Shown: piece after piece, positions 277-30,968 of the stretch
Position numbering within the stretch: the stretch's first letter is position 1
Layout: every line of letters begins with the position of its first letter
Assembly (NCBI GenBank): GCA_944359935.1
Contig: CALVTD010000003.1
Coordinates: 1-48,206 of the forward strand
Origin: an uncultured Clostridia bacterium
GTDB lineage: Bacteria > Bacillota > Clostridia > Christensenellales > UBA1242
Reading direction: 5' to 3'
DNA: 48,206 bases
Notes under the pieces: model-generated
The model's input: the letters and a program-made list of their open reading frames with translations, nothing else
What the model was told of the DNA's origin: nothing
The model's database searches: none
Made by a program: the position numbers and the translations under genes

Positions 277-392
277 TCTGGTGGCGATAGAGAGAAGGTT
301 CCACCTGTTCTCATTCCGAACACAGAAGTTAAGCTTCTCATCGTCGAAAATACTTGGCTGGTAACGGCCCGGGAAGATAGAACACTGCCAGA
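277..392 (+). rRNA. rrf: 5S rRNA
   Basis: TCTGGTGG...CTGCCAGA terminal helix, CATTCCGAACACAGAAGTTAAGC motif, 116 nt. Confidence 0.97.
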
Positions 393-402
393 TAACAACA
401 TT

Positions 403-429
403 AAAGCAACCTTAAAAGGTTGCTTTTTT
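403..429 (+). terminator. Intrinsic terminator after 5S
   Basis: AAAGCAACC-ttaaaa-GGTTGCTTT followed by T run. Confidence 0.8.
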
Positions 430-442
430 GATTTTAATTTTT

Positions 443-720
443 GCAGTGTTCTCTCTTCCCGGAAGGGAAGATATCGCCAAGTCAAAGAAGTATGCGTGGC
501 GATGCGGGCAAGCCCTAATGAACACTGCCAGATAACAAAAAAACGCACCCGCAAGGGTGTGTTTTTTTTCTGGCAGTGTTGTGCGTCTTTGACGCACTGC
601 ACAATTTAAATTGTGCCTATCTTCCCGCACGGAAAGATATCTTCGATGCGAAAAACTGCGTTTTTCTAATGAACACTGCCATATAATTTCATTAAAGCGA
701 CCTCGTAAGGTCGCTTTTTA
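443..720. repeat. Inverted and direct copies of the 5S 3' end interleaved with hairpins and extra terminators
   Basis: Antisense copies 443-462 and 569-627, sense copies 465-536 and 630-686, terminator-like hairpins 537-569 and 693-719. Confidence 0.9.
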
Positions 721-729
721 TTTTTTTTC

Positions 730-785
730 TATCGGCAAAAAAATTATTACTTGTGTTTGACTTTTTGCCGATAAATGCGTATAAT
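730..785 (+). promoter_or_regulatory. sigma-A promoter of the Fic gene overlapped by a 12-bp inverted repeat (putative operator)
   Basis: TTGACT(757-762)-17 nt-TATAAT(780-785); TATCGGCAAAAA (730-741) / TTTTTGCCGATA (762-773). Confidence 0.75.
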
Positions 786-801
786 AATGTTGAGGTAAAA
801 T

Positions 802-1668
802 ATGGAGTTTGTAGGTGTAAGTGAAATCGCCAAGAAATGGGGCGTTAGTGAACGGACAGTGCGAAATGATTGCGCCACTGGCAAAGTGCCGGGTGCATTT
901 TTGCAGGGGAAAACTTGGAAAATTCCTGTTGATGCAGTTAGGCCTGTTCACAAAAAAAATAAATTGCTTGAAATTTTAAAGCAGCAAAAAGAAAGCCATT
1001 TAAAGGGCGGAATTTATCATAAAATTCAAGTGGCATTTGCATATAACTCAAATCATATTGAAGGAAGCACTTTGACGGAAGAGCAAACTCGATTTATTTA
1101 TGAAACCAAAACTATCGGTGTGCAAAAACATTCAGTGAATGTGGATGACATTATTGAAACAATCAACCATTTTAAATGCGTTGATTATGTTATTGATAAC
1201 GCATTAAAGCCATTAACTCAAAAGTTTATAAAAAAACTGCATTATATTTTGAAATCTTCAACAACAGATTCTCAAAAAGCTTGGTTTAATGTGGGAGTGT
1301 ATAAAAAATTGCCAAATGAAATAGGTGGAGAGCAAACTTGCTTGCCTGAAAATGTTGAACAAGAAATGGAAAATTTATTGCGTAAATATTCATCAATCAA
1401 AAATAAAAAACTTGAAGATATAGTTGAATTTCATCAAAAATTTGAAAAAATTCACCCATTTCAAGATGGCAATGGCAGAGTTGGGCGATTAATAATGTTT
1501 AAGGAATGTTTGGCAAACAATATTGTGCCGTTTATTATTGATGACAAATATAAAACATATTATTATCGCGGGCTTAAAGAATGGGGTAGTGAACGCGGCT
1601 TTTTGCTTGAAACATGCTTGTTTATGCAAGATAATTTTAAGAAATGGTTGGAATATTTTAGAATTTAA
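802..1668 (+). CDS. Fic family protein with N-terminal helix-turn-helix domain
   Basis: Fic motif HPFQDGNGRVGR, YNSNHIEG motif, N-terminal HTH-like VSEIAKKWGVSERTVR; RBS GAGGT. Confidence 0.92.
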   Translation: MEFVGVSEIAKKWGVSERTVRNDCATGKVPGAFLQGKTWKIPVDAVRPVHKKNKLLEILKQQKESHLKGGIYHKIQVAFAYNSNHIEGSTLTEEQTRFIYETKTIGVQKHSVNVDDIIETINHFKCVDYVIDNALKPLTQKFIKKLHYILKSSTTDSQKAWFNVGVYKKLPNEIGGEQTCLPENVEQEMENLLRKYSSIKNKKLEDIVEFHQKFEKIHPFQDGNGRVGRLIMFKECLANNIVPFIIDDKYKTYYYRGLKEWGSERGFLLETCLFMQDNFKKWLEYFRI

Positions 1669-1763
1669 AAACTCTTTCGTAACTGAATTTGTTTTAAATT
1701 GTTGTAATCTTGCAACTTTGAGGTGTTTGCATCATATTTTCCTCTAAAAATTTAAAAAAGGTA

Positions 1764-1792
1764 TTGAAATTATTTTAATTTCGTGGTATACT
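1764..1792 (+). promoter_or_regulatory. sigma-A promoter (extended -10)
   Basis: TTGAAA-17 nt-TATACT with upstream TG. Confidence 0.6.
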
Positions 1793-1844
1793 AAGGCATA
1801 AGAAAATGATTTCAAGCATTTAATCATTATTTTAGGAGGGACAC

Positions 1845-3572
1845 ATGTCTAATAAACTTACTAAAATTTTAACTTATTGCAGTTTGGTTTTGGTTATTTT
1901 GGCCGTTGTGATTACAACCGCTATTTGTTTGACAACCGCGCTTTCTTATAAAGTTACAGTTGACGTTGTTATTCAAAACATTGTGCCAGAAGAAGCAACC
2001 GATGCCAATGTTACTGTAAATATCAACGGAACAGAAGTTTCAACTCAAAGAGAGAACACCACTCTTACAGTTAACGCTCAAAAAGATAGGGAAGTTACAA
2101 TTACTTTTAACATGACCGACTATAACTATGTTGGCTTGTATAATGGAACAAAAGACACATATCAAGGCACCGACAGCATTTTGGCTGAGCCAACCGAATA
2201 TGTTTACAAGTTCACCGTTACACAAGACACCAACTACACTCTTGTTGTGGATGCTGCATCCTTCTATCAGGTGAGTGTTGGATACAATGCTGACAAACCT
2301 GTTGACGAAGTTGAGGGTGGGGCAATCGCAGTCACTGCATCAGGCGCCGGCGTTTATGCAGATGGTGACACAGCCAACTCTTATATTGTAAGAGAGGGCG
2401 CAGAGGTTAGCGTTTCATATGAGGCAAGTGAATATACTTTCACAGGCTGGACAAATGGCGATGCAACTTCAACTGACAGCGTTTACACATTCGTTGCAAA
2501 CGGCAACACAACAGTTACTGGAAATTTTGAAGCATATGTTTATTATGATGTTAGAGTAAATTACGCTTTTGACGAGCAAGCAATTGGCGGAAACATTGCG
2601 GTTACTGCAAATGGCCAAGAGGTTACACAAGAAGGCATTACACTTAAAATTCGTGATGGCGCAAATGTTACTCTCAGCGTAGTGAGCGGAACAGGTTATG
2701 ATTTCACAGGCTGGACAAATGTCACAGACAATGCCACATCTGCAACTGTTAATATTGCTGTTTCAGCAAACGCAGAATACACTGCAAACTTTAATGTAAT
2801 TAAATATGATATTGAATATGTTGATGGTGAGGAGTCGACAACTGTGCAAGATGTGGTTTATGGCTCAACACTTCAAGCGGGTCCAGAAGACATCTACGCA
2901 AACGGCTGGAATAAATTCCTTGGCTGGACGCTTAATGGAAGAACATATACGCAAGCAATTTTTGACGGGAATAACAGGGAAATCACTTTAACAGCATCAT
3001 ATAGAAACCAAAGTGAAATCAACTACACTTTTGATGCGGCAGCAACCGATTTTAGCACTGCTGGAACAATTTCTTACAACACAGCAAATGGCCTTGACCT
3101 TGCAAATGCCCCAACAAGAGATTACTACAACCTTATTGGAATAAGCATCAACGGCACACAATATCTTTTCAATGAAGAAAAAACTGGTTTCGCTGACGCG
3201 CAAAACACAATCGACCAATATTTGGTTAATCAAAGTGCCTCAACACTTACAGTTACTCCAATTTGGGAACTTGATGGTGCACCTATAACAGTAAACTTAC
3301 CAAGCGACTCTGATTTCAGCGGAAACATGGATAATGAAGACCAAATTACAGCAGATGCGAACATCGAAACATTGATGGTTACAGAATTCTTTGGAATTGA
3401 CGCTTCGCAAATTGCAAGTTTCAAGATTCAATATAACAGCAGAACTTACACAGTTTCTAGAACAACCGCCGATGCTTATGCAACAATCTCATTTGCAGAT
3501 GTGTTTGACACAATCGGGTTTGATGCAAGTGCATCAACAGAATTGACATTCATCTTTACAAGCAATGTTTAA
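1845..3572 (+). CDS. Membrane-anchored surface protein with InlB B-repeat-like domains
   Basis: N-terminal hydrophobic helix; repeated YTFTGWT / GYDFTGWT / KFLGWT motifs ending in T(A/G)NF; acidic Thr/Asn-rich; RBS AGGAGG. Confidence 0.75.
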   Translation: MSNKLTKILTYCSLVLVILAVVITTAICLTTALSYKVTVDVVIQNIVPEEATDANVTVNINGTEVSTQRENTTLTVNAQKDREVTITFNMTDYNYVGLYNGTKDTYQGTDSILAEPTEYVYKFTVTQDTNYTLVVDAASFYQVSVGYNADKPVDEVEGGAIAVTASGAGVYADGDTANSYIVREGAEVSVSYEASEYTFTGWTNGDATSTDSVYTFVANGNTTVTGNFEAYVYYDVRVNYAFDEQAIGGNIAVTANGQEVTQEGITLKIRDGANVTLSVVSGTGYDFTGWTNVTDNATSATVNIAVSANAEYTANFNVIKYDIEYVDGEESTTVQDVVYGSTLQAGPEDIYANGWNKFLGWTLNGRTYTQAIFDGNNREITLTASYRNQSEINYTFDAAATDFSTAGTISYNTANGLDLANAPTRDYYNLIGISINGTQYLFNEEKTGFADAQNTIDQYLVNQSASTLTVTPIWELDGAPITVNLPSDSDFSGNMDNEDQITADANIETLMVTEFFGIDASQIASFKIQYNSRTYTVSRTTADAYATISFADVFDTIGFDASASTELTFIFTSNV

Positions 3573-3578
3573 TAACAA

Positions 3579-3610
3579 CAAAAAGCCTTGAAAAAATTCA
3601 AGGCTTTTTT
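3579..3610 (+). terminator. Intrinsic terminator
   Basis: AAAAGCCTTGAA-loop-TTCAAGGCTTTT followed by Ts. Confidence 0.8.
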
Positions 3611-3630
3611 AATTTTTTTATTAAAATTTG

Positions 3631-3659
3631 TTGACAAAGTTATTTTACTTTGGTATATT
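3631..3659 (+). promoter_or_regulatory. sigma-A promoter of tRNA-Val
   Basis: TTGACA-17 nt-TATATT with extended -10 TG. Confidence 0.7.
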
Positions 3660-3678
3660 TATCTTGCATCCTTTATTT

Positions 3679-3754
3679 GGGAGTTTAGCTCAGCTGGGAG
3701 AGCATCTGCCTTACAAGCAGAGGGTCATAGGTTCGAGCCCTATAACTCCCACCA
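3679..3754 (+). tRNA. tRNA-Val(TAC)
   Basis: Cloverleaf, anticodon loop CTTACAA, GTTCGAG T-loop, encoded CCA. Confidence 0.97.
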
Positions 3755-3756
3755 GC

Positions 3757-4013
3757 AAAAAAGCACACGCATGTGTGCTTTTTTATTTTGCCTTTGGCAA
3801 AATTGCATGGCTTTGCCATGCGCTGGTGGGAGATATATCTGCGCTTGGCTCACTCTTGCAAGCAAGTTCGCCTGCGCTTGATATAACTCCATTAGTTGCG
3901 TTTGCATGGTGGGAGATATATCAGCGCGTGGCTCACCATTGCAAGCAAGTTCGCTTATGCCTTGATATAACTCCCACCAAAAAAAACGGTCATCGCAAGA
4001 TGGCTGTTTTTTT
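3757..4013. repeat. Terminator, hairpins and two tandem cassettes bounded by inverted/direct copies of the tRNA-Val 3' end
   Basis: TGGTGGGAGATATA at 3824 and 3907; TATAACTCC(CACCA) at 3882 and 3966; shared core GGCTCAC..TTGCAAGCAAGTTCGC; terminators 3757-3784 and 3980-4013. Confidence 0.9.
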
Positions 4014-4061
4014 CACACTTTTTTGCCAAAAAGAATATGTAAAGCAAGGAGGTTTTTTAAA

Positions 4062-4571
4062 ATGCCTATTATTTGTAATGATAACACAAATGGATGCTTT
4101 ACTGGGCCTTACTATCCGCGCCCGATTTTTCAATGCTGCTCGGGTGGTTCGTGTGGTGGCCCGAACACGATTGTAAATCCTACGCGTTCGGAAGAGTGGG
4201 GCTTTTTTGTGGGGGCGAGCGCAACGGTTGCTCAAAATCAGGCCTTGCCACTTACGCTGAATGCCAGTGCGGGTACTGCCGTTACGCAAAGTGATGCCAC
4301 AACCGTGGGACTGACGGCGGGTTCTTACCAAGTTTCGTTTAATGTAACCGCATCTTCTGCCGCCAACCCAATGGAGTTTGCCCTTGAACTTAACGGCACG
4401 GTGCTGCCTTATTCTATCGTTACTGCCACTGGTGACAGCACCAACAAAACCCTTTCAAATTCGGTGATTATTTCAGTGCCAACAAATGCCACGCTGAGGA
4501 TAGTTAACCTAACGGCAGGAAATGCCACGGCCACGCGCAGCAATTTGGCGGCGACAAAACTTTTGACATGA
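4062..4571 (+). CDS. BclA C-terminal-domain-like (spore surface) protein with Cys-rich N-terminus
   Basis: RBS AGGAGG then ATG 4062; beta-rich pattern LTAGSYQVSFNV...ALELNG...ATLRIVN resembles BclA/C1q-type domains; family call from recall. Confidence 0.55.
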   Translation: MPIICNDNTNGCFTGPYYPRPIFQCCSGGSCGGPNTIVNPTRSEEWGFFVGASATVAQNQALPLTLNASAGTAVTQSDATTVGLTAGSYQVSFNVTASSAANPMEFALELNGTVLPYSIVTATGDSTNKTLSNSVIISVPTNATLRIVNLTAGNATATRSNLAATKLLT

Positions 4572-4655
4572 TGCTAAAATTCCCTTTCATTTTTATTTCG
4601 AATGGCGTATAATAATTATAGGGATGGCGCAGGCTAAAAAAAGGAGGGGGAAAGC

Positions 4656-4811
4656 ATGAAAAAAGATTTTGTAAATGACGAGCAACGGCTTTACTGGGAG
4701 CTTTTTAGCAAAGGTCCAAAGGGGCTGAAAGGCAACCCTCTGCTTATTACCGAGTTTATGGAAATGGAAAAAGAGCGCACAAAAATTAAAACTGAGGAGA
4801 TGTCAAGATAA
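4656..4811 (+). CDS. Small YqzL-like protein (51 aa)
   Basis: Strong RBS AAGGAGG; MKKDFVNDEQRLYWELFSKG...; position immediately upstream of recO as for yqzL; not in the ORF track. Confidence 0.6.
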   Translation: MKKDFVNDEQRLYWELFSKGPKGLKGNPLLITEFMEMEKERTKIKTEEMSR

Positions 4812-4814
4812 CAA

Positions 4815-5525
4815 ATGTCTACAAAAGTTAAGGCTTTCGTGCTGGAAGCAAAAGATAGCAAAGAAAAAGATAAACTTGCCACCCTTTACACGCTTGAAAA
4901 TGGCAAGTTTTTTGTTAATTTTAGGGGAGTGAGGGGCGCAAAAGCAAAACTGAAAGCGGCAAAAGAAGTTTTTACTTTTGGCGAGTATGTTATTGAGCAA
5001 ACCAAGGCTGGCAACATTGTAACCGAAGCCAACATTATTGATAATTTCATGCCGCTTAGAAATGATTTGGACAAGTTCTATGAGGCATGTTCGATTTTTG
5101 ACATAGTTAAAAAACTTGGTGCGCAAACGCCAGACCCGGCACTCTTTATTGAAATTTTAAAGGCGATGAAAGCCATATGTTATGACGGGGCGCCAAAATA
5201 TTATGTTGTGATTAAGTTTTTGCTTAACATATTTGAAAACATGGGCTACAAACTTAACTTTGATAAATGTGCAAGTTGCGGCGCAGTGCTCACAGGAAAG
5301 AAATACTTGAATCTCGATTACGGCGAAATTGTCTGTGCAAATTGCAGGCAGATGACCTCAATCGAGGTTGCGCCTGCCACAATTGGCGCGCTTAAAATAA
5401 TCAAACAAACGCCTTATGAAAAACTTAAAACCGTCAAACTTGGCGGCGGAGGTGAGATTAAAGCGCTAAATCTTTTGTGTGAAAACTTTGAGTGGCGCTT
5501 TGGTAGTAAGTTTTTTATTGATTAA
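4815..5525 (+). CDS. recO: DNA repair protein RecO
   Basis: N-terminal OB-type start (EKDKLATLYTLENGK), C-terminal Zn finger CASCG...VCANC. Confidence 0.9.
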   Translation: MSTKVKAFVLEAKDSKEKDKLATLYTLENGKFFVNFRGVRGAKAKLKAAKEVFTFGEYVIEQTKAGNIVTEANIIDNFMPLRNDLDKFYEACSIFDIVKKLGAQTPDPALFIEILKAMKAICYDGAPKYYVVIKFLLNIFENMGYKLNFDKCASCGAVLTGKKYLNLDYGEIVCANCRQMTSIEVAPATIGALKIIKQTPYEKLKTVKLGGGGEIKALNLLCENFEWRFGSKFFID

Positions 5526-5549
5526 AAGGTTGCGTGGCAGCCTTTTTTT
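5525..5549 (+). terminator. Intrinsic terminator after recO
   Basis: AAAAGGTTGC-gtg-GCAGCCTTTT followed by Ts. Confidence 0.7.
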
Positions 5550-5584
5550 ATTTGAAAAAATTTTAATTTTCTTTTGAAAAATGC

Positions 5585-5613
5585 TTGACTTAAAAGGCGT
5601 TATTGTTTATAAT
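5585..5613 (+). promoter_or_regulatory. sigma-A promoter of the S10 operon
   Basis: TTGACT-17 nt-TATAAT. Confidence 0.85.
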
Positions 5614-5619
5614 TACTAT

Positions 5620-5829
5620 GCTGTGAAATATGGGTTGATGCCTAAGGTTACTTTGGTTACCGGCAATCAAAGAGAACTTGGGCGGACAAGTTCGTGGCAA
5701 GACCGCGAGCGGCTGACCTTAATCCACATTTTTTATTGCTCAGCAGCATGAAACACACGGATGCGTGTTCGAGGGTTTCAAAAAGCAAGTGGGGCAAGGC
5801 AGTTTAGCCAAAACTAGGAGGAAAATTAA
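5620..5829 (+). promoter_or_regulatory. Long structured 5' leader of rpsJ (candidate ribosomal-protein leader RNA)
   Basis: About 210 nt, GC-richer than flanks, between promoter and rpsJ RBS, with local stems. Confidence 0.5.
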
Positions 5830-6138
5830 ATGGCAACAAAGAAAATCAGGATTAAACTTAAAGCGTTTGAGCACTCACTCATCGATGAGGCTTGCAAAAG
5901 AATCATCCTTGCTGCTGAGAAAAACGGCGCCAAAGTTGCTGGTCCAATTCCACTTCCAACTGACAGGGAAGTAGTTACGGTTATCCGTTCACCACATATG
6001 CACAAAGATAGCCGTGAACAATTTGAGTCTAAGACTCACAAAAGACTTATCGATATTATTAGTCCATCCACTAAGGTTGTAGACGCTATGATGAAACTCG
6101 ACCTTCCAGCAGGCGTGGACATCCAAATCAAACTGTAA
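5830..6138 (+). CDS. rpsJ: 30S ribosomal protein S10
   Basis: [30 protein letters not shown]. Confidence 0.99.
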
Positions 6139-6149
6139 GGAGGCACTTC

Positions 6150-6782
6150 GTGAAAAAAGCAATACTAGGCAAAAAACTTGGCATGACACAAGTATTCAGT
6201 TCTAACGGAACTGTTATTCCTGTTACTGTTATTGAAGCAGGCCCTTGCAGTGTCGTTCAAGTAAAAACAAAAGATAATGATGGTTATGAGGCTGTGGTTG
6301 TGGCTTATGGCAAACAAAAAGAGCACAGACTTAACAAACCAAAACTTGGCGTGTTCAAAAAGGCAGGCGTTGAGCCTTGCAGAATTTTAAAAGAATTCAA
6401 ATTTGACAACAGCGCCGATTACACCGTTGGGCAGGTGATTGATTGTGGAATTTTTGCTGAGGGTGATAAGGTTGACGCAATCGGCATCACAAGAGGCAGA
6501 GGTTTTACAGGTGTTATTCAAAGATGGAATAACCACCGTCTTAAAATGAGCCACGGAACAGGCCCTGTTCACAGAGAGGTTGGCTCTATGGGTGCAAACT
6601 CCACCCCATCCAGAGTTTTCAAAAACAAACATATGCCGGGACACTATGGATGTGAAAGAGTTACAATTCAAAACCTTGAAATAGTTAAAGTCGATGCAGA
6701 AAGAGGTGTTCTGCTTGTCAAAGGATGTGTTCCTGGACCTAAGGGCTCAGTTGTTACCATTCGTGAGGCAATTAAAGCATAA
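6150..6782 (+). CDS. rplC: 50S ribosomal protein L3
   Basis: ILGKKLGMTQ, GRGFTGVIQRW; GTG start with RBS. Confidence 0.99.
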   Translation: MKKAILGKKLGMTQVFSSNGTVIPVTVIEAGPCSVVQVKTKDNDGYEAVVVAYGKQKEHRLNKPKLGVFKKAGVEPCRILKEFKFDNSADYTVGQVIDCGIFAEGDKVDAIGITRGRGFTGVIQRWNNHRLKMSHGTGPVHREVGSMGANSTPSRVFKNKHMPGHYGCERVTIQNLEIVKVDAERGVLLVKGCVPGPKGSVVTIREAIKA

Positions 6783-6796
6783 AGGAGTTAATGAAA

Positions 6797-7423
6797 ATGG
6801 CAAAAGTTAAAGTTTATGACATGTCGGCTAAGGTTGTTGGCGAAATTGAACTTAATGACGAACTTTTTGCTCTCCCTTATAACCAGCCTTTAATTCACGA
6901 GGCAGTGGTGGCATATCAGGCTAACCAAAGACAAGGGAACAAGAGCGCTCTCACAAGAAGCGAAGTTAGAGGTCACGCTAAAAAACCTTGGAGACAAAAG
7001 AAAACAGGTCGTGCAAGACACGGCTCAACAAAATCTCCTGAATACACTGGCGGCGGAGTTGTGTTCGCACCAAAACCAAGAGATTTCTCTAAGAAAATGA
7101 ACAAAACTGCAAAGAGACTTGCACTTCTCACTGCTCTTTCAAGAAAACTTGAACTGGGACAACTTGTTGTTCTTAAAGATTTTGAAATTGCAAGCGGAAA
7201 AACCAAAGACGCAAACGCTTTCCTTAAAGCATTTGGCCTTAAAGGCAGAACACTTGTTGTTGGAAAGCAAAATTCTCGAAACACTCTGCGTGCTTCGGCA
7301 AACATTAAGTCTCTTACCACAGAGAATATTGCAACACTTTCAACCTATGAAGTTGTTGCAAACAAAAATGTTCTTATTACATGCGACTCAATCAAATCAA
7401 TAGAGGAGGCTTACGCAGAATAA
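6797..7423 (+). CDS. rplD: 50S ribosomal protein L4
   Basis: KKPWRQKKTGRAR, GGGVVFAPKPRD; start 6797 preferred over 6791 by RBS spacing. Confidence 0.98.
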   Translation: MAKVKVYDMSAKVVGEIELNDELFALPYNQPLIHEAVVAYQANQRQGNKSALTRSEVRGHAKKPWRQKKTGRARHGSTKSPEYTGGGVVFAPKPRDFSKKMNKTAKRLALLTALSRKLELGQLVVLKDFEIASGKTKDANAFLKAFGLKGRTLVVGKQNSRNTLRASANIKSLTTENIATLSTYEVVANKNVLITCDSIKSIEEAYAE

Positions 7424-7725
7424 TGGAAGCATATGAAATTATTAAAAAACCACTCTTAACAGAAAAAAGTTATGCTGGAATACAAGCGAAAGTGTATTCA
7501 TTTGTGGTTGACAAAAGGGCAACTAAAACCGAAATTAAAAAAGCGGTTGAAAGCATTTTTGGAGTGGAAGTAGAAAAAGTTAACACTATGGTTGTTAAAG
7601 GCCACAAAAAAGTTCAAAACACTAAGGCTGGAAGAACAGTAGGCAAAACCAGCGATTACAAAAAAGCAATCGTTACTTTGACTGAAAAATCAAAACCTAT
7701 TGCATTCTTCGAAAGTTTGTCTTAA
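7423..7725 (+). CDS. rplW: 50S ribosomal protein L23
   Basis: IIKKPLLTEKS, KKAIVTL; TAATG overlap with rplD. Confidence 0.98.
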   Translation: MEAYEIIKKPLLTEKSYAGIQAKVYSFVVDKRATKTEIKKAVESIFGVEVEKVNTMVVKGHKKVQNTKAGRTVGKTSDYKKAIVTLTEKSKPIAFFESLS

Positions 7726-7741
7726 TTAAAAGGAGGAAATC

Positions 7742-8569
7742 ATGGCTATTAAAAAATCTAAACCAACATCAGCCGGCAGAAGATTTTATTCTTCACTCGT
7801 GTTTGATGAAGTTACAAAGAAAACGCCTGAAAAATCTCTCCTCGCTGTTAAGAAAAAACATGCTGGAAGAAATGCTCAGGGCAAAATCACAGTTCGTCAT
7901 CAAGGTGGCGGAAACAGACAAAAATATCGTATCATCGATTTCAAACGCAATAAGGATAACATCCCAGCAAAAGTTGTTGGAATTGAATACGACCCAAACA
8001 GAACCGCTTACATCGCTCTGCTTTCATATGCTGACGGAGAAAAAAGATACATCATCGCTCCACTTGGCCTTAAAGTTGGCGACAGCGTAATGAGCGGCGA
8101 AAACGTTGAAATCAAAGTTGGAAACTCTCTTCCAATTTCATCCATCCCAGTTGGTTCAGTTATTCATAACATTGAACTTCAACCTAAAAAGGGTGCTCAA
8201 CTTGGAAGAAGCGCAGGCAGCGCAGTTCAACTTATGGCAAAAGAGGGCAAGTATGCAACACTCAGGCTTCCAAGCGGAGAAATGAGAAAAGTTTTAACCT
8301 CTTGCCGTGCAACCATTGGAACAGTTGGCAACCTTGACCATGAACTTGTTTCTCTTGGCAAGGCTGGAAGAAAACGCCATATGGGCGTTAGACCAACAGT
8401 TCGTGGTGTTGTTATGAACCCTAACGACCACCCACACGGCGGTGGTGAAGGAAAGAGCCCAGTCGGCATGGCGTCTCCAATGACCCCATGGGGCAAACCT
8501 GCACTTGGTCTTAAAACCAGAAAGCACAAAAAAGCATCTAACCGCTTGATGGTTAAGAGAGTTAATTAG
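7742..8569 (+). CDS. rplB: 50S ribosomal protein L2
   Basis: [26 protein letters not shown]. Confidence 0.99.
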
Positions 8570-8580
8570 GAGAAATAATT

Positions 8581-8865
8581 ATGCAGAAAGAAATTAAAAA
8601 ACCTTATGTGCACCCATCTCTTGTTAAAAAAGTTAGAGAGATGCAAGAGTCTGGCACAAAGAAACCTATCAAAACTTGGTCTCGTGCTTCAACAATCTAT
8701 CCAGAGTTTGTAGGCTTTACTTTTGCTGTTCATAATGGTAAAAAACATGTTCCAGTTTACTGCACAGCCGATATGGTTGGTCATAAACTTGGCGAATTTT
8801 CTCCAACAAGAACTTATAAAGGCCATGCTGCTAAAAAAGCAGCCAAAGGCGCTGGCAAGAAGTAA
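8581..8865 (+). CDS. rpsS: 30S ribosomal protein S19
   Basis: [27 protein letters not shown]. Confidence 0.98.
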
Positions 8866-8878
8866 GGTGAGGTGAATT

Positions 8879-9265
8879 ATGGCTACAAGAATTAGACAAA
8901 AAGCAGAAAAAAGGGCTAAGGAAAAAGATATTCGTCCTTTTGCTAAGGCTAGATACATTAGAATGAGCCCTTCAAAAGTTAGAATTGTGCTTGACCTTAT
9001 TAGAGGCAAGAACGCTAAGGAAGCGGCTGCAATTCTTGCAAACATGCCAAACGCTGCGGCTGAGGCATCTTTAAAAGTTTTAAACAGCGCAATCGCAAAC
9101 GCTGAAAACAACAAAGGTATGAATGGTGACAACCTTTTTGTTGCAGAAGCATATGTTTGCCAGGGCCCAATTCTTAAAAGAATTATGCAAAGAGGCAAAG
9201 GCTCGGCTGACAGAATTTTAAAGAAAACATCGCACATCACTATTGTGCTTGATGAAAAAAGATAG
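8879..9265 (+). CDS. rplV: 50S ribosomal protein L22 (N-terminal extension)
   Basis: RMSPSKVRIVLDLIRGK, SAIANAENN, TSHITIVL. Confidence 0.98.
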   Translation: MATRIRQKAEKRAKEKDIRPFAKARYIRMSPSKVRIVLDLIRGKNAKEAAAILANMPNAAAEASLKVLNSAIANAENNKGMNGDNLFVAEAYVCQGPILKRIMQRGKGSADRILKKTSHITIVLDEKR

Positions 9266-9274
9266 GAGGGCAAA

Positions 9275-9943
9275 ATGGGACAGAAAGTTAATCCAATTGG
9301 ATTCAGGCTTGGTGTAAACAAAGAATGGAACTCAACTTGGTATGCAAAGAAACAAGATTTTGCTCCAAATCTTTTGGAAGACCAAAAAGTTAAAAAGCAC
9401 ATTAAATCAAAATATTATGCTTGTGGAATTTCAAAAATCACCATTGAAAGAACCGAAAACAAACTTGTTATCAACATTTTCACTGCTAAACCTGGCATGA
9501 TTATCGGTTCAAAAGGCACAGGCATTGAAAACATCAAAAAAGAAGTTTCAAAAATTATCAGACCTGTTAAATCTTTAATCATCAATGTTAAAGAAGTTAA
9601 AAAACCAGACCTTGACGCTGTTTTGGTTGCAGAAAGCATCACAGCACAACTTGAAAAGCGTATTCAATGGAGAAGAGCACTTAAAATGGCTTTGCAAAGA
9701 GTTATGAAAGCGGGTGCTAAGGGCTGCAAGGTTCAGGTTAAGGGTGTTATTGACGGCGCAAGTTCTCTTCACAGAACAGAGCATTATATGGAAGGCACAC
9801 TTCCTCTTCACACTCTCAGGGCTGATATTGACTACGGCACTGCCGCTGCTTACACAGATTATGGCAAACTTGGCGTAAAGTGCTGGATTTATAAGGGAGA
9901 TATCCTTCCTGCAAAGTCGTCTGAGAAAGGAGGACAAGAATAA
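9275..9943 (+). CDS. rpsC: 30S ribosomal protein S3
   Basis: [24 protein letters not shown]. Confidence 0.99.
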
Positions 9944-10386
9944 TGTTGATGCCAAAGAGAGTTAAAAGAAGAAAGGTTTTTAGAGGCAGAATGAAAGGCA
10001 AAGCAACCCGCGGCAACACCGTTGCTTACGGACAGTTTGGCCTTATGGCATTGGAGCCATGCTGGATTAAATCTAACCAAATTGAAGCAGCCAGAATTGC
10101 TATGACTCGTCATATCAAGCGTGGTGGTAAAGTTTGGATTAAAATTTTCCCAGACAAACCTGTTTCTAAGAAACCTCTTGGAACGCGTATGGGTTCAGGA
10201 AAAGGCGCACCAGAATTTTGGGTTGCAGTTGTTAAACCAGGCAGAATTCTTTTTGAAATTGAAGGTGTTTCGGAAGAACTCGCACGCGAAGCAATTAGAC
10301 TTGCTGGGCACAAACTTCCTTGCAAAACTAAGTTTGTAAAGAAGGAAGAGGCTCCGGTAGAAGGTGGTGAGAAAGATGAAAATTAG
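9943..10386 (+). CDS. rplP: 50S ribosomal protein L16
   Basis: [23 protein letters not shown]. Confidence 0.99.
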
Positions 10387-10594
10387 TGAAATCAAATCAT
10401 TAACTCAAACTGAACTTAATGCAAGATTAAAAGAGTTAAACATGGAACTATTCAATCTTCGTTTCTCAAACGCTTCTAGAAATCTTGCAAATCCTGTTCA
10501 AATTAGAAATGTTAAAAGAGAAATAGCAAGAGTCAAAACAGTTATAAGAGAAAAAGAATTGGCTGGCGCAAATGGAGGAAACGATGGAAAATAG
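10376..10594 (+). CDS. rpmC: 50S ribosomal protein L29
   Basis: [20 protein letters not shown]. Confidence 0.97.
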
Positions 10595-15051: not shown

Positions 15052-15054
15052 GGT

Positions 15055-20867: not shown

Positions 20868-20879
20868 AAGGAGAGAACA

Positions 20880-21389
20880 ATGGCTAACGATAAACTTGGT
20901 AGACCATCCAAAGAGAGAGCAGCAATGCTTAGAGGTTTAGTAACCGATCTTCTTTGGTACGGAAAAATTCAAACAACCCTTGCAAAAGCAAAGTCTGTTC
21001 GTTCTGAGGCCGAGAAACTTTTAACCGCAGCAATCAAAACATATAAAGATACTGTAACTGTAACAAAGGAAATCAAAGATGACAAAGGCGTTAAAGTTAA
21101 AACCGAAGTTGTCAATGATGGTCCTAAAAAACTTGCTGCAAGAAGAAAAATCATGGCTTATGTTTATGATAAGCAAGAACAACGCGCAGACAAAGAATCT
21201 AAAACTGCTTTCCAAGCAAGAACAGAGGGCATCAATCATCCTCTTCTTGAAAAGATTTTCAACGTGTATGCTCCAAAATATGCAGAGCGCGCTGAAAAAC
21301 TTGGACAGGGCGGCGGATACACTCGCATCATCAAACTTGGTATGCGTAGGGGAGATGCTGCTGAGATGGCAGTGATTGAACTCATCTAA
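20880..21389 (+). CDS. rplQ: 50S ribosomal protein L17 (long form)
   Basis: KLGR, IQTTLAKAK, GGYTRIIK, RRGDAAEMAVIEL. Confidence 0.97.
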   Translation: MANDKLGRPSKERAAMLRGLVTDLLWYGKIQTTLAKAKSVRSEAEKLLTAAIKTYKDTVTVTKEIKDDKGVKVKTEVVNDGPKKLAARRKIMAYVYDKQEQRADKESKTAFQARTEGINHPLLEKIFNVYAPKYAERAEKLGQGGGYTRIIKLGMRRGDAAEMAVIELI

Positions 21390-21750
21390 TCGTGGGGGCA
21401 AACAAAAAATTAACGCGGGCACGCCTAACGGCTAACCGCTTTTTTTGTTTTCTCCCACGAACCCTCGGGCGAATTGCAACTTAATGCTTGTTTTCGCCTT
21501 TTGGCGAAAATCTGCGCGCGAGCAGTTGAATTCGCCCTCTCGCGGCCAAACGAAAATCGCGCTAACGCTGGCGATTTTGCCGCGACTTAAAGAGGAAGTG
21601 GTTAAAAATGGACGCGGCTGGCGCATTAGACGAGAAAGGCGAACTTGCTTGCAAGGGTGAGCCTGCCGAAGTCGCATTCTCTCGCAGAGAGAATTAGAGG
21701 TGACAGCAAATTTTCATGAACAGGCACAGCCTTTGCCTCATGAAAATTTG
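21390..21750. repeat. Mosaic of REP-like hairpin modules downstream of rplQ
   Basis: Successive stem-loops; modules at 21481-21517, 21541-21588 and 21637-21663 recur at 30644, 30854 and (inverted) 3847. Confidence 0.85.
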
Positions 21751-21763
21751 GCTCCAATGTTTT

Positions 21764-21792
21764 AAAAAGATAGGGAAACCTATCTTTTTTTA
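21764..21792 (+). terminator. Intrinsic terminator of the alpha operon region
   Basis: AAAAAGATAGG-gaaa-CCTATCTTTTT. Confidence 0.85.
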
Positions 21793-21852
21793 TTAAAAAA
21801 TGAATAATTAAAAAATAATTAACAAAATTAAATTTTTTTCATATTTATTTAT

Positions 21853-22710: not shown

Positions 22711-22796
22711 GCAAACTGCGCTTTTTCTGCAAATTACTTTTTCGCTATGCTTGCAAAAATTGGGGTAAATTGCTATACTTAAACTAAGGAGTTAGC

Positions 22797-23558: not shown

Positions 23559-23560
23559 AT

Positions 23561-24523: not shown

Positions 24524-24532
24524 GGAGAAATC

Positions 24533-27500: not shown

Positions 27501-28150
27501 CGCTTAATGACTATCTCGACTATTACGACAACTTCAATTTGACAAGCGACATGATGAAACCTGCCGAGGATATGGACGAAGAATTGGAAGAAGAGGGCGG
27601 CGAGCAAGATGCCGTTTACGACCAAATTTATGACGGCATGCCTGTAACTTGCGGCGGAATTATCGTTGATAAAAACAAAAAATTGGGTAAGGATGGCAGA
27701 GAGTTTGCCTTTCTTAAAATTGAAGATTTATACGGGACTTTTGAAGTTTCGCTGTTTGGAAATGTTTATCCAAGGTTTAAAAATATTGTGGATGAGGATG
27801 CACTGGTTACGGTTAAGGGCAAAATCTCGCTGAGAAACGGCTCGCCAAGCGTCAATGCGCAAGAGATTATACCTTGGAAAAAGCGTGGCGAGCAGGCACA
27901 AGTTGACAACACTTCAAGCAAACTTTACCTTCGTTTTGACACTAAGGACATTGACATTTACAACAAGGTGTGCTCTTCGCTCAATGCCTATCCTGGCGAG
28001 GCGGAGGTGATTATCAAATGCACCTCATATAACAAGGCGTTTATGTATAACGCCAAAGTTGAGTTAAACAACTATCTTCTAAATGAACTATACGGCATAA
28101 TTGGCTATGATAATGTAAAAACTAATCAAGTTAAAAAGGAGAACGCATGA
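24533..28150 (+). CDS. dnaE: DNA polymerase III subunit alpha
   Basis: HLHVHTEYSLLDG, GPGRGSGAGS, MPDFDVDF, YAFNKSHA. Confidence 0.99.
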   Translation: MKQFVHLHVHTEYSLLDGLARIEKLIEITKERGWKAVAITDHGNMFGVLKFYEACILNGIKPIIGCEFYIARDHKVKNTKEDIGHLILLAKNNEGYHNLLKLISIAHVDGMYYKPRIDYELLKKYSKGVICLSACLAGHVQKLILQRRFDEAEKCALWHKEVFGDDYYLELQNHYLPEDKEVILHLTELSKKLGIKLVATNDVHYLNKEDAELQDALMCVQMHKFVDDNDRMKFETNEFYYKTYEEMLEALPGYEEALDTTLEIADKCEVVLKTKSLGEIASVDEKYKLPANRNYIPQYVPETGETTFDYLKRMAYEGLEKLYPEITDELKERMEMELQTIKEQGFVEYFLVVWDYINYARQNDIPVGPGRGSGAGSLVAYCIGITKVDPMKYHLFFERFINKERVSMPDFDVDFCMDRRGEVIEYVKRKYGPDHVAGIVTFGSMKAKNAIRDVGRVLRLPISVVDKLCKDIPNFPPDGLKKDKPVLKYYFGRTKDPANDKFIIPDLKKAYEEDELVKKVVDMAIKLEGVPRNTSMHAAGVLIAPQPASDFVPLARNGEDIVTEYDMIEIEHLGLLKMDFLGLRTLTDIKKAQDYIKENHGVDIDFYNMEYDDPKVFELISSGNTDAVFQLESAGMKRFMKDLGPTCMDDIIAGISLYRPGPMDSIPQFVKCKKDPSAVVYDDPCLEDILDVTYGCIVYQEQVMKITQVMAGFSLGQADNIRRIMGKKKVDKIAAEKVKFVEGWEDPTGKASIPGAVKLGHKREVAEKVFDRMAEFAKYAFNKSHAAAYAYVGYQTAYLKTYYEVEFLTAVLNNRITNADEIKKYVTYAKKEGFEVLPPDINKSGTYFKTENGNIRFGLAALKGVGASVIDLIINERNKGGEFKSFEDFVSRVDTQALNKRVLESLIVSGAFDTFGKYRSQLMAVYSIAVDRAVKDNKNKQTGQFSMFDSFEPLKNQFNTLDYPNIKEYNKESLLKFEKEVVGIYLSGHPLNDYLDYYDNFNLTSDMMKPAEDMDEELEEEGGEQDAVYDQIYDGMPVTCGGIIVDKNKKLGKDGREFAFLKIEDLYGTFEVSLFGNVYPRFKNIVDEDALVTVKGKISLRNGSPSVNAQEIIPWKKRGEQAQVDNTSSKLYLRFDTKDIDIYNKVCSSLNAYPGEAEVIIKCTSYNKAFMYNAKVELNNYLLNELYGIIGYDNVKTNQVKKENA

Positions 28151-29019
28151 AGATTTTGCTGATTGCAAGTGGTGGCGATGCACCTGGCATGAACAAGTTT
28201 ATTGCACAAATGTATAAAAGGTATGGCAGCAGCCTTTACGCTTGCAAGGGCGGTTTTGAAGGGTTGTATAACGCAGACATTGTGCCTGCAAGGTTTTTTG
28301 AGCCGTTCAAAGTTGCAAATAGTGCAGGATGCTGTATTAAAAGTGGAAGATTTCCGCAATTTAAACAAAAAAAATATTTTAACAAAGCACTTGAAAACGC
28401 CAAGAATTTCGACTTTGTGGTTGTCATGGGCGGGAATGGTTCAAAGAAGGGCGTTAAAGAACTTGCAGAGGGCGGCGTAAAAGCAATTTTTGTGCCTGCA
28501 ACCATCGACAATGATGTTGAGGGCACAAATTACTCCATTGGCTTTCACACCGCTGTTGCCATGGTTTGCTACGCCGTTAGAAATGTTATGCCAAGCATGC
28601 AATCACACTCTCGGGCGTGCGTGTTTGAGGTGATGGGCAGGCACTCGGGCGAGATTGCACAAAACGCAGCAAAAATTTTGCAGCCGCAATTTTTGATTAC
28701 TCAGCCATCTCAGTTAAACATACCTGAAATGGCAAGCGAAATTTTAAAACGCCACAAAAAAGACCAAGCCACATCAATCATCATTCGTGAAAACATCATA
28801 GATTGCGATGATTTAACAAAAAAATTAAATGATGAAATTGGCCAGAGACTTGTGAAAAATTTTGTGGTTGGGCATCTTCAAAGAGGGGGAAAGCCAACAA
28901 AGGCAGAACTTAAAATGTCTGCCGCTTTTGCCTATGCAACCATTAAAGCGATAGGCAAAAATCAAAGTGGCGTGGCAATAGAGTTTGTTGACGGCAAAAT
29001 GCGCATACAAGAAATATGA
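28147..29019 (+). CDS. pfkA: 6-phosphofructokinase family protein (short, divergent)
   Basis: SGGDAPGMN, TIDND, EVMGRHSG, GHLQRGG. Confidence 0.88.
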   Translation: MKILLIASGGDAPGMNKFIAQMYKRYGSSLYACKGGFEGLYNADIVPARFFEPFKVANSAGCCIKSGRFPQFKQKKYFNKALENAKNFDFVVVMGGNGSKKGVKELAEGGVKAIFVPATIDNDVEGTNYSIGFHTAVAMVCYAVRNVMPSMQSHSRACVFEVMGRHSGEIAQNAAKILQPQFLITQPSQLNIPEMASEILKRHKKDQATSIIIRENIIDCDDLTKKLNDEIGQRLVKNFVVGHLQRGGKPTKAELKMSAAFAYATIKAIGKNQSGVAIEFVDGKMRIQEI

Positions 29020-29059
29020 TAAATAAAATGAGACAAAATGGTTTTTTTTGGTTAAATCG

Positions 29060-29088
29060 TTGACAAAAAGCGCAGGTTATGATATATT
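29060..29088 (+). promoter_or_regulatory. sigma-A promoter of tRNA cluster
   Basis: TTGACA-17 nt-TATATT with extended -10 TG. Confidence 0.7.
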
Positions 29089-29108
29089 TACATAGTCGCT
29101 TAGCGCGC

Positions 29109-29182
29109 GCGGGTGTAGTTCAGTGGTAGAACCCCAGCCTTCCAAGCTGGTTGCGAGGGTCCGATTCCCTTCACCCGCTCCA
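29109..29182 (+). tRNA. tRNA-Gly(TCC)
   Basis: GCGGGTG acceptor, anticodon loop CTTCCAA, CCA end; T-loop reads TCCGATT. Confidence 0.95.
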
Positions 29183-29187
29183 TTCGG

Positions 29188-29264
<77 letters not shown>

Positions 29265-29270
29265 TAATAT

Positions 29271-29347
29271 GGTGGTCGTAGTTCAGTTGGCAGAACGCCA
29301 GATTGTGGCTCTGGAGGTCAAGGGTTCGATCCCCTTCGATCACCCCA
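29271..29347 (+). tRNA. tRNA-His(GTG)
   Basis: G-1, anticodon loop TTGTGGC, C discriminator plus CCA. Confidence 0.96.
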
Positions 29348-29361
29348 TATTTACTTTTCGG

Positions 29362-29436
29362 TGGGGTGTCGCCAAGCGGTAAGGCATTGGACTCTGACTC
29401 CAACATGCGTAGGTTCGAATCCTACCACCCCAGCCA
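29362..29436 (+). tRNA. tRNA-Gln(CTG)
   Basis: TGGGGTG acceptor (U1-A72), anticodon loop CTCTGAC, CCA end. Confidence 0.96.
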
Positions 29437-29587
29437 AGTTGGTTCGTCAGGCTGCTTTATTGGCAGGATTCGAACCTACGGTTCGCCCCTTCGGGCGGGG
29501 AACAAAGCAAGTTTGTTCCCGTTTTGACTGAAAAACAAGCACACCGGCTTGTTTTCCCGAGCGTCAAAACTTTTGCCACCCCAGCCA
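29437..29587. repeat. Inverted T-arm copy, hairpins and direct copy of the tRNA-Gln 3' end
   Basis: GGCAGGATTCGAACCTACG (29462-29480) antisense to the T arm; GCCACCCCAGCCA (29575-29587) direct. Confidence 0.88.
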
Positions 29588-29611
29588 ATAATTACGCAAA
29601 AAAATCAACAC

Positions 29612-29687
29612 GGTTCACTAGCTCAGTCGGTAGAGCACTTGACTTTTAATCAAGGGGTCCCGGGTTCGAGCCCCGGGTGAGCCACCA
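29612..29687 (+). tRNA. tRNA-Lys(TTT)
   Basis: Cloverleaf, anticodon loop CTTTTAA, CCA end. Confidence 0.97.
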
Positions 29688-29713
29688 AAAAACTCCTTTT
29701 TGGGAGTTTTTTT
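29688..29713 (+). terminator. Intrinsic terminator after tRNA cluster
   Basis: AAAAACTCC-loop-GGAGTTTTT. Confidence 0.8.
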
Positions 29714-29795
29714 ATTTAATCAAAAATTCTGGGTTAAAATCGTTATTGACTTTGTGTTATAAATAATTTATAATTCATTTATCAAAGGGTGGGAA

Positions 29796-30476
29796 ATGGA
29801 AGATTTTGTTAAAACAACGCTGAAAAAATATTTGGATGAAGGCAAAACATTGATTGAATGCAGAAAGTTGGGATTGGACATAAGTCAATTACCAGATAAA
29901 AATTTTGATTATTTTTGTTTGTCCACGCAAAGGTTTCCAGACAACTATTTTGAAGAGGAGAAAAATGGCGTTACATATGTCACTCCTGATAAAATTAAAA
30001 ATTCCCGCTTGCCGCACATGGGAATCATTCTTAAAGACGGAACAATTTTTAGAGTTGACACCTTTCATGCCGAAGTTGCTTTGTGGCTTAAATTCAACAA
30101 GCGCAACCCACAAGATAAAGAGTACATTGATTTGCGCGGCAGTTTAAGATATGTGCATTTTCCTCATTCTAAAAAATTGAGTGTGGTGCAAGGCTATGAT
30201 TATTCTAAAAAATTTGAACAAACAAACTTATATGATTTGATACATGCTTGGACAACTTACTATGACTGCACAAAGCATGACACTGATATTTTGCTAACTG
30301 AAAATCAAGTTATCACGCTTTTTAGGTTGTGTAAAGTGTATGATGTTGATTTTGAAGATATGCTAAACAGCAATGTTGGCTTTTGCATGGAGAGCGTTAA
30401 TCCTGAGCAAAGAAAAAAGGCAAATCAAAACAACAGTTTGATTAACGCAACTTTAAGTAGAATTCGCGATTTTTAA
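29796..30476 (+). CDS. Hypothetical protein (226 aa)
   Basis: Long ORF with own promoter TTGACT(29746)-17 nt-TATAAT(29769); no recognised motif. Confidence 0.75.
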   Translation: MEDFVKTTLKKYLDEGKTLIECRKLGLDISQLPDKNFDYFCLSTQRFPDNYFEEEKNGVTYVTPDKIKNSRLPHMGIILKDGTIFRVDTFHAEVALWLKFNKRNPQDKEYIDLRGSLRYVHFPHSKKLSVVQGYDYSKKFEQTNLYDLIHAWTTYYDCTKHDTDILLTENQVITLFRLCKVYDVDFEDMLNSNVGFCMESVNPEQRKKANQNNSLINATLSRIRDF

Positions 30477-30553
30477 TTTATTGTGCAAAGTTTTTTGCCA
30501 ATTTTGTTGACTTATTGGCCATGTTTTGATAAAATATCTTTGCACTTAAATAT

Positions 30554-30628
30554 TGGGGTGTCGCCAAGCGGTAAGGCACAAGACTTTGACTCTTGCATGC
30601 GCAGGTTCAAATCCTGCCACCCCAGCCA
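30554..30628 (+). tRNA. tRNA-Gln(TTG)
   Basis: Anticodon loop CTTTGAC, CCA end; promoter TTGACT(30507)-17 nt-TAAAAT. Confidence 0.96.
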
Positions 30629-30968
30629 AATGAAAAAACTGCGTTAATGCTTGTTTTCGCTTTGCAGCGAAAAGCTGCGCTCTTTTACTTGTTTTTTCAT
30701 TTCGCGACCAAACGCAAGTCGACGAGCGACTTGGTCGCGACTGCCGTCCGCAGCTGAAATTCTAAGTAATTTTGGGCTATGATAAACTGCGCTTGTGTTC
30801 TGTCTGTGCTTGCAGCCCGGCGATGAACGCTGGCGCTTGTTTTTTTTGTAATGCGCGGCCAAACGAAAATGCCAAAGGCATTTTGCCGCGACTTGAATTT
30901 GTTAAAATAAAACCCGTTTTTTTATTCTCGGCAGGATTTGAACCTGCGACCCGCCTCTTCGGGCGGGA
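30629..30968. repeat. Hairpin-module mosaic closed by an exact inverted copy of the tRNA-Gln(TTG) T arm
   Basis: GGCAGGATTTGAACCTGCG (30930-30948) is the exact reverse complement of 30600-30618; modules shared with 21481-21588. Confidence 0.88.

Follow-up and report, generated by a model that had tools for sequence, protein, structure and literature searches.

Repeat units with host-fitted arms and shared hairpin cargo behind tRNA and 5S rRNA genes of a gut Clostridia genome

The present analysis concerns a 48,206-nucleotide stretch of DNA from an uncultured Clostridia bacterium (Christensenellales, UBA1242; assembly GCA_944359935.1, contig CALVTD010000003.1, positions 1 to 48,206; hereafter the window), in which a 5S rRNA gene and three tRNA genes, for valine and for two glutamine isoacceptors, are each followed by repeat units that copy the 3' end of the gene in front of them. 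The units are self-folding modules that combine host-specific arms with a shared cargo of hairpins, turn over fast between species and lack a dedicated enzyme among the families searched for. They are probably repeat cassettes of the kind described in Escherichia coli as tRNA-linked repeats (TLRs), linked to stable-RNA genes, built like the units of the Rfam family RtT and co-transcribed with their host as folding trailers. The original prediction had recognized this layout and offered it as a candidate new system, a claim that does not hold, given that the same design recurs in the E. coli tyrT repeats and in the closing helix of RtT. As such, the design is a known but unexplained one, and what is new here is the phylum in which it occurs and the features that comparison of related genomes brings out.

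Anatomy and folding of the units

All complete units follow one formula, namely the reverse complement of a sequence X.Y, a loop of 0-4 nt, X, the hairpin cargo and finally Y. X.Y is a continuous piece of the 3' region of the host gene: in tRNAs it runs from the T arm through the CCA end (in two units of the related genome G010, from the anticodon arm through CCA), and in 5S rRNA it covers the last 25 nt or so. The cargo consists of one to four GC-rich hairpins placed between the two sense pieces. In the folds, a closing helix forms from Y and the outer part of the antisense copy, X being paired with the inner part. This arm helix closes all five complete units of the window, with z-scores from -3.1 to -7.3. 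Specifically, 5S unit 1 folds at -39.7 kcal/mol (z -5.4), 5S unit 2 at -44.6 kcal/mol (z -7.3) and the second Val unit at -32.1 kcal/mol (z -5.1) with its arms paired over their full length, and the Gln-CTG unit reaches a z of -4.5. The parts of the four loci are listed here; the tRNA and 5S calls come from ARAGORN and Rfam, the hairpins at 694-728, 3755-3822 and 3980-4013 were read from the sequence, and all terminator and hairpin limits were set by eye and may be off by 1-2 bases.

277-393, + strand: 5S rRNA gene, host of the first array (Rfam RF00001, 90.2 bits)
403-429, + strand: terminator-like hairpin T1 with a T run, in the gap between the 5S gene and unit 1; 369-462 matches its own reverse complement at 79%
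443-533, + strand: 5S unit 1, with antisense 443-462, sense 465-473 and 520-533, and two cargo hairpins
537-569, + strand: terminator-like hairpin T2 (A run, stem, T run), centre of the self-inverted match 521-580
569-684, + strand: 5S unit 2, with antisense 569-580 and 617-627 (two hairpins between them), cargo and sense 671-681
694-728, + strand: terminator-like hairpin T3, end of the 5S array
3679-3754, + strand: tRNA-Val (TAC), host of the second array (ARAGORN, Rfam tRNA)
3755-3822, + strand: terminator-like hairpin (about 3755-3784) and two small hairpins, preceding the Val units
3824-3897, + strand: Val unit 1, with antisense 3824-3837, cargo hairpin 3847-3873 and decayed sense 3882-3890 (z -3.1)
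3907-3979, + strand: Val unit 2, with antisense 3907-3920, cargo and sense 3966-3979 ending in CCA
3980-4013, + strand: terminator-like hairpin, end of the Val array
29362-29436, + strand: tRNA-Gln (CTG), host of the third unit (ARAGORN, Rfam)
29461-29587, + strand: Gln-CTG unit with cargo of family R1, consisting of antisense T arm 29461-29480, a short sense piece, four hairpins and sense 29576-29587
30554-30628, + strand: tRNA-Gln (TTG), host of the fourth, incomplete unit (ARAGORN, Rfam)
30629-30929, + strand: GC-rich hairpins of a dispersed repeat between tRNA-Gln (TTG) and the remnant, matching contigs C19 and C35
30930-30968, + strand: front part only of an R1-type unit, with antisense T arm 30930-30948 and the first hairpin

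The copies were located with a script that matches the last 45 nt of each RNA gene to its downstream flank. As the original prediction had stated, an antisense copy of the host's own 3' region lies at all four loci (14-20 nt, at most one mismatch), and each arm fits its host, in line with the claim that arms are taken from the local gene. The 5S copy at 443-462 repeats gene positions 369-388 over 20 nt with one mismatch, both Val copies span 14 nt with one mismatch each and extend to the CCA end, the Gln-CTG copy at 29461-29480 has one mismatch in 20 nt, and the Gln-TTG copy at 30930-30948 is exact over 19 nt. A sense copy likewise follows at three of the four loci, with exact tails of 14 nt (5S), 14 nt (Val) and 12 nt (Gln CTG); elsewhere in the genome such tails reach 18-26 nt. 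Downstream of Gln TTG the same script found no sense copy, and the rest of the unit is missing there.

Units lie behind the host's terminator or within the spacer of a tRNA operon, often in tandem, and in the arrays each unit is followed by a terminator-like hairpin of its own. The 5S and Val genes have two units each, Gln CTG has one and Gln TTG has the single remnant, while the distance from the gene to its first unit is 50 nt at 5S, 70 nt at tRNA-Val, 25 nt at tRNA-Gln CTG and 300 nt for the Gln-TTG remnant. The stretches 369-462 and 521-580 also form imperfect palindromes, composed of the tail of the gene or unit, the terminator and the next antisense arm, and centred on T1 and T2.

The window is contig C3 of an 867-kb genome (G000) of 51 contigs, about 40% G+C and 97% completeness; two short contigs, C41 and C48, have 55-57% G+C and may be foreign to it. 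The RNA genes of the window begin with the end of a 23S rRNA gene at its start, followed by 5S at 277-393, tRNA-Val at 3679-3754, a Gly-Arg-His-Gln(CTG)-Lys cluster at 29109-29687 and the lone Gln(TTG) at 30554-30628. As controls for the flanks of RNA genes, 400 windows of 400 nt were drawn at random from G000. None of them reaches the antisense score of 5S (17), Gln CTG (17) or Gln TTG (19), and two reach that of Val (11; p 0.005). Genome-wide, 8 of the 33 RNA genes with enough flank score above all controls downstream, one of them, Arg-TCT, owing to the Gln unit that its flank contains, as neighbouring tRNAs were not masked in this count; upstream, 2 of 33 reach that level. The layout is more widespread than first noted, and it extends to G010 and, rarely, to G007. 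Besides the window, both copies are found in G000 behind Glu-TTC (C2), Met (C4), Ser-TGA (C16), Leu-TAA (C21) and Lys-CTT (C1), and Glu-CTC (C18) has the antisense copy alone. At a score of at least 12 and with neighbours masked, 12 of 37 tRNAs are flagged in G010, ten of them with both copies, against 2 of 31 in G007. Units with antisense arms also occur at 16 of the 20 best-matching 5S loci of the genus, a proportion that is not a frequency, as these loci were picked by similarity to a query containing units.

Some loci depart from the common form. At two loci of G010, L014 and L026, the tRNA-Thr(TGT) gene and one tRNA-Met gene are followed by units joined in the anticodon rather than the T loop; here the sense copies measure 39 and 41 nt, and it is the anticodon arm that is copied in antisense. 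G000 further holds mirror units on the 5' side, in which the first 36-43 nt of a tRNA are copied upstream of the gene: on C37 before tRNA-Met (4173-4247), on C26 before tRNA-Ile and on C21 in the gap between tRNA-Cys and tRNA-Leu-TAA. The C37 copy is split in the anticodon loop by hairpins and has an antisense piece after it; the C21 copy is split in the D loop, where a 38-nt hairpin, also carried by the Glu-TTC unit, stands twice.

Shared cargo, fitted arms and turnover among relatives

A covariance model, R1, was built from ten copies of the cargo type of the Gln-CTG unit, which it matches at 29462-29587 with 112.9 bits, and this cargo is found in relatives behind other tRNAs. R1 occurs in 43 of 101 genomes of the genus, with 1-8 copies in each, and weaker matches turn up across the order, in 29 of 151 genomes belonging to 20 of 95 genera. 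A same-strand tRNA lies upstream of 36 of the 42 copies examined, within 60 nt in 30 cases, and five of the six copies that lack one stand at a contig start. Within the genus the hosts are Gln-TTG, Gln-CTG, Trp, Leu-AAG, Leu-TAA, Lys-CTT, Arg-ACG and Asn-GTT, and outside it Ser-TGA and Gly-TCC. At each host the left arm is antisense to the T arm of that very tRNA and the right arm is its tail. The arms also track changes of the host between species, as at Arg-ACG (locus L077 versus L078), Glu-TTC (G000 versus G010) and the 5S ends of many genomes. The hairpins of R1 covary strongly: 94.9% of cells are paired, compared with at most 49% when partners are slid, both sides change in 19 of 24 pairs, and none of 500 shuffles reaches the observed level.

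The covariation bears on one alternative, namely that the units control maturation in cis, in that a read-through antisense arm pairs with the real T arm or 5S end and marks or blocks the precursor. At three of the four loci the distance from gene to arm is indeed 24-70 nt, and the palindromes 369-462 and 521-580 would let the gene end pair with the arm across the terminator. The arm nevertheless has a closer partner within the unit, which the minimum-energy folds use, and the covariation supports the inner helices; moreover, the Gln-TTG arm is 300 nt away, and the nearest relatives lack the Gln-CTG unit altogether. Fold-back onto the tRNA's own T arm, which the original prediction had raised, is therefore less likely, the folding and covarying partner of the arm being inside the unit, and cis control as a whole appears improbable.

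Cargo is shared with other sites too, as had been predicted. The core of the first Val unit (3847-3873) is a copy of a dispersed 24-27-nt hairpin unit distinct from the R1 cargo, with matches of 96-100% identity at C3:21637-21663 and on C19 (four copies), C16 and C13, and part of the stretch behind Gln TTG recurs on C19 and C35. These pieces belong to a GC-rich hairpin composite of up to about 400 nt, dispersed over a dozen or so intergenic sites (window 21387-21764 and 34490-34618; contigs C2, C4, C6, C10, C16, C19, C20, C21 and C35), whose sub-units make up the 300 nt behind tRNA-Gln(TTG) and the Val unit core. The composite lies directly behind tRNA-Leu(TAG), tRNA-Ser(GGA) and tRNA-Gly(GCC) and matches no Rfam family at gathering score. 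Part of the tRNA-Met unit, around 2400-2514 of C4, is 92% identical over 50 nt to C20:13026-13075.

Close species differ in their units through gain and loss. A tight Gln(CTG)-Gln(TTG)-Lys cluster free of units is the usual arrangement among relatives; in G000, G006 and G010, Gln CTG is followed by a shared unit and Gln TTG is located elsewhere. Full R1 units follow Gln TTG in G006, G010 and others. In the nearest relatives by sequence, G089 and G050, the spacer between Gln CTG and Lys is 66 and 58 nt long and unit-free, as against 175 nt in G000, where the old spacer sequence is recognizable on either side of the unit. The empty orthologous sites that the original prediction had called for thus exist, and no target duplication was seen in this single comparison of filled and empty site. 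The second 5S unit is present in G089 and absent from G050, and G034 has at least five 5S units, with the unit types in another order than in G000, as well as three R1 units in a row at locus L063. The position of tRNA-Gln(TTG) itself varies: it adjoins Gln(CTG) in most relatives, stands behind a 226-aa open reading frame in G000, G089 and G050 (the last with two copies of that frame) and is inverted in G006 and G010.

Such turnover raises the question whether the units are non-autonomous mobile DNA, akin to the palindromic element that the original prediction had put forward. Cargo and arms would then travel as DNA from one RNA gene to another, the folded arms would imitate the double-stranded 3' end of the target gene, joining would fall to a host enzyme or a transient one, and tandem arrays would arise by repeated insertion. 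This is the main alternative, though a rather unlikely one. It would account for the presence of one cargo at ten or more tRNA types, each with matching arms, for the 0-8 copies per genome, for arrays with differing unit order in G034 and G000 and for the empty site in G089 and G050. Furthermore, the order of gene tail, short terminator-bearing loop, inverted arm, cargo and direct repeat is, as generally described, the product expected of single-strand hairpin insertion of the CTX type, and the antisense arm begins at the mature 3' end in the Val units and in 5S unit 2.

The enzymes speak against it. The original prediction had noted that the window encodes no candidate enzyme; the check made here was genome-wide rather than reading frame by reading frame: G000 has no match to RVT_1, Y1_Tnp (PF01797) or Resolvase (IS110-type and TnpB-type enzymes were not searched for), and it does have a single tyrosine recombinase of the Phage_integrase family, whose best full-length match is XerS at 190.7 bits, compared with an NCBIfam cut-off of 267. 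Beyond this XerS-like protein, then, no transposase, integrase or reverse transcriptase was found, and Xer enzymes require their own binding sequence, whereas the arms vary with the host. Across the genus, Y1_Tnp occurs in 11 and RVT_1 in 27 of the 101 genomes, and R1 is linked to neither: it is present in 3 of 11 genomes with the Y1 transposase and 40 of 90 without, and in 13 of 27 with reverse transcriptase and 30 of 74 without, a rough check, as related genomes are not independent. Unit-rich G010, like G000, has neither enzyme. The suggested co-occurrence with Y1 or reverse transcriptase genes was accordingly not found, and reverse transcription, one of the origins first proposed, draws no support from enzymes, with no such gene in G000 and no association in the genus. 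The absent target duplication counts against mobility as well, and the accessible part of a mobilome preprint (10.1101/2024.07.17.603846) shows no circular DNA of the tyrT region in E. coli.

Two further explanations carry less weight. The copies could be integration scars, that is, att repeats left at tRNA genes by decayed phages or islands. Their sense copies begin in the T loop, or in the anticodon loop in G010, and tRNA-targeting integrases reportedly favour such loops, a preference attributed to Williams in 2002. This reading is very improbable: 5S genes are hosts too, the interior is conserved and covarying, the sole tyrosine recombinase is XerS-like, the Gln-CTG unit and its sense copy lie inside the old spacer, and the antisense arm is left unexplained. 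The earlier statement that plain direct repeats of integrases do not explain the layout therefore stands. An artefact of assembly or amplification that makes local inversions might be suspected in a 51-contig draft, but it is hardly credible, since dozens of genomes assembled independently, the complete E. coli K-12 sequence and contigs from RNA libraries all show the layout.

Transcription and interpretation

The RNA evidence comes from four metatranscriptome runs of one chicken-gut study, as contigs that show neither strand nor ends; the runs contain about half of the words of window positions 1-10000. One contig of 229 nt, found in one run and free of differences, spans 316-542, that is, 5S, T1 and unit 1 to the foot of T2. 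At the Val locus, 113-nt contigs span 3824-3927 in two of the four runs. These contigs (runs X1 and X3) have nine extra leading letters, which equal the spacer between the Val units, placed before unit 1; to judge from these letters, they suggest a strain variant with a third tandem Val unit. The stretch 589-1323 has zero cover in all four runs, which makes uniform carry-over of DNA less likely, and 543-735, 3755-3823 and 3928-3979 have no contig cover in all or most runs, a gap that weighs neither for nor against transcription. Transcription of 5S unit 1 by read-through is thereby weakly shown.

In the most likely model, a TLR-like unit would be made within the transcript of its host and fold by itself. 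The antisense arm would sequester the spare copy of the tail and so prevent it from mispairing with the real tRNA or 5S, and the copied tail would give the unit a host-like point for 3' trimming, as proposed for E. coli RrB. At the level of DNA, host recombination between repeated tails might multiply, shuffle and delete units, and the arms may be renewed by hairpin-guided strand switching during replication, with no enzyme of the unit's own.

Several observations weigh against this reading of the units as co-transcribed RNA trailers. The reverse strands of the units are equally stable on folding, because the units are palindromic in sequence, and a strand call from the R1 alignment (51 G-U versus 23 A-C cells) leans weakly towards sense, on cells that are not independent. 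The evidence for read-through amounts to one contig, showing neither strand nor ends, from one of four runs of a single study. The antisense arm of the Gln-CTG unit matches its own tRNA at 19 of 20 positions and the form of that tRNA in G050 and G010 at 20 of 20, so arms are not always kept up to date; here the tRNA changed and the arm did not keep pace. RF00391, the RtT model, finds nothing in the window at gathering score, nor to E = 5 in the two regions searched. In E. coli rrnB, a 13-nt exact sense copy of the 5S end lies behind rrfB, yet the 300 nt behind that gene hold no antisense match of 8 nt or more; the window's 5S units have clear antisense arms and rrnB does not, so the arm is not universal in the TLR class. 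The spread is patchy, with 0-8 R1 copies per genome, about 12 of 37 tRNAs with units in G010 versus 2 of 31 in G007 and unit-free nearest relatives, a pattern to be expected of a selfish mobile element no less than of a useful RNA. On the present data, a useful RNA and a selfish cassette that just happens to be transcribed cannot be told apart.

A bolder proposal is that of a cassette system aimed by target mimicry, in which cargo gains templated backward and forward copies of the mature 3' end of its host RNA and the folded arms imitate the target; this is doubtful. By analogy with integron cassettes and their folded attC sites, host machinery might then insert, excise and shuffle the cassettes at the ends of RNA genes. 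Candidate routes are the single Xer-type recombinase, strand switching in replication or copying from mature RNA. If true, this proposal would describe a mobile element with no enzyme of its own, spanning E. coli to gut Clostridia.

The genus offers a comparative system for both the origin of the arms and any role of the RNA, with genomes below 1 Mb in which the share of RNA genes followed by units ranges from about one third in some species to nearly none in others. The results are also of practical concern for annotation, as tRNA-like pieces beside strong hairpins could pass for pseudo-tRNAs, integration scars or regulatory switches.

Comparison with known systems

Several known classes were considered and rejected. 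For a miniature inverted-repeat transposable element, the arms are inverted repeats but differ from host to host, and the one comparison of filled and empty site shows no target duplication. No defining gene or motif was seen of a retron, a diversity-generating retroelement, the homing spacer of a CRISPR-guided transposon, a T-box or an integron attC proper. Repetitive extragenic palindromes (REPs) and the mosaic elements (BIMEs) and hairpins (REPINs) built from them share with the units small GC-rich palindromes that are dispersed or clustered between genes, and the Val core is such a unit. They differ in that REPs carry no copies of the end of a neighbouring gene; in addition, G000 has no Y1 transposase of the RAYT (REP-associated tyrosine transposase) type and the genus shows no link to one, so that, as the original prediction had held, REPs moved by RAYT enzymes do not explain the layout.

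Integration at dif by Xer, as in phage CTX, offers a likeness of layout alone, with a target, a short loop, an inverted copy of the site, cargo and a direct repeat. The folded single strand of CTX mimics dif for XerCD. The difference is that Xer sites are, as commonly understood, fixed sequences, whereas the arms here differ with each host gene. The tandem inversion duplications that the Roth laboratory is said to have described at Salmonella lac, formed by snap-back at short palindromes, likewise share the direct-inverted-direct order and palindromic joints, the joints here being the hairpins of terminator and T arm; the foreign cargo in the third copy and the presence of the same cargo at many genes are both left unexplained by that process.

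The closest likeness in design is to the TLRs of E. coli. A literature search for tRNA-linked repeats gave PMC8144298 as the sole bacterial paper among the matches listed, and one for partial tRNA copies downstream of tRNA genes found none. As the accessible portions of PMC8144298 describe it, the class was defined there after Egan and Landy (1978) and Rudd (1999), such repeats having been known in E. coli since 1978 with no agreed origin or function. It comprises 22 repeats of unknown function at ten loci in tRNA and rRNA operons, with 1-5 units per locus, the 3' end of each repeating 18-19 bp of the 3' end of the upstream gene, and co-transcription with the operon and processing to a discrete RNA count among the traits of the class. 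Three of them, rrA, rrB and rrF, lie behind 5S between T1 and T2 and are reached by read-through transcription of T1; the 5S-linked TLR carries an 18-bp copy of the 5S end, and binding of Hfq and CsrA to RrB has been reported (PMC8144298, same portions).

The window shares with this class the position directly behind an RNA gene, a repeat of the 3' tail, if a shorter one, and 1-5 units per locus. The order of rrA, rrB and rrF, with 5S, a terminator, a unit ending in the 5S tail and a terminator, occurs twice in the window. In E. coli K-12, the 178-bp units of tyrT and tyrV open with a diverged antisense copy, 22 nt long, of the T arm of tRNA-Tyr; a 9-nt sense piece and GC hairpins come next, and a sense tail of 19 nt ends the unit. 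The Rfam structure of RtT (RF00391, gene rttR), whose model has four matches in E. coli, has as its outer helix the pairing of antisense copy and sense tail, with a 9-nt free end. The likeness lies in design and not in sequence: loose-threshold Rfam searches over both regions gave, besides tRNA and 5S, chance-level matches alone. The exact sense copies measure 12-14 nt in the window as against 19 nt in E. coli, and here one cargo family serves many tRNA kinds. In design, however, the correspondence runs through the whole unit, which stands in tandem behind a tRNA, opens with an antisense T arm, contains a second sense piece and GC hairpins, ends in the sense tail, leaves free a tail of acceptor strand and CCA, and, in the folds of the window's units, is closed by the same outer helix.

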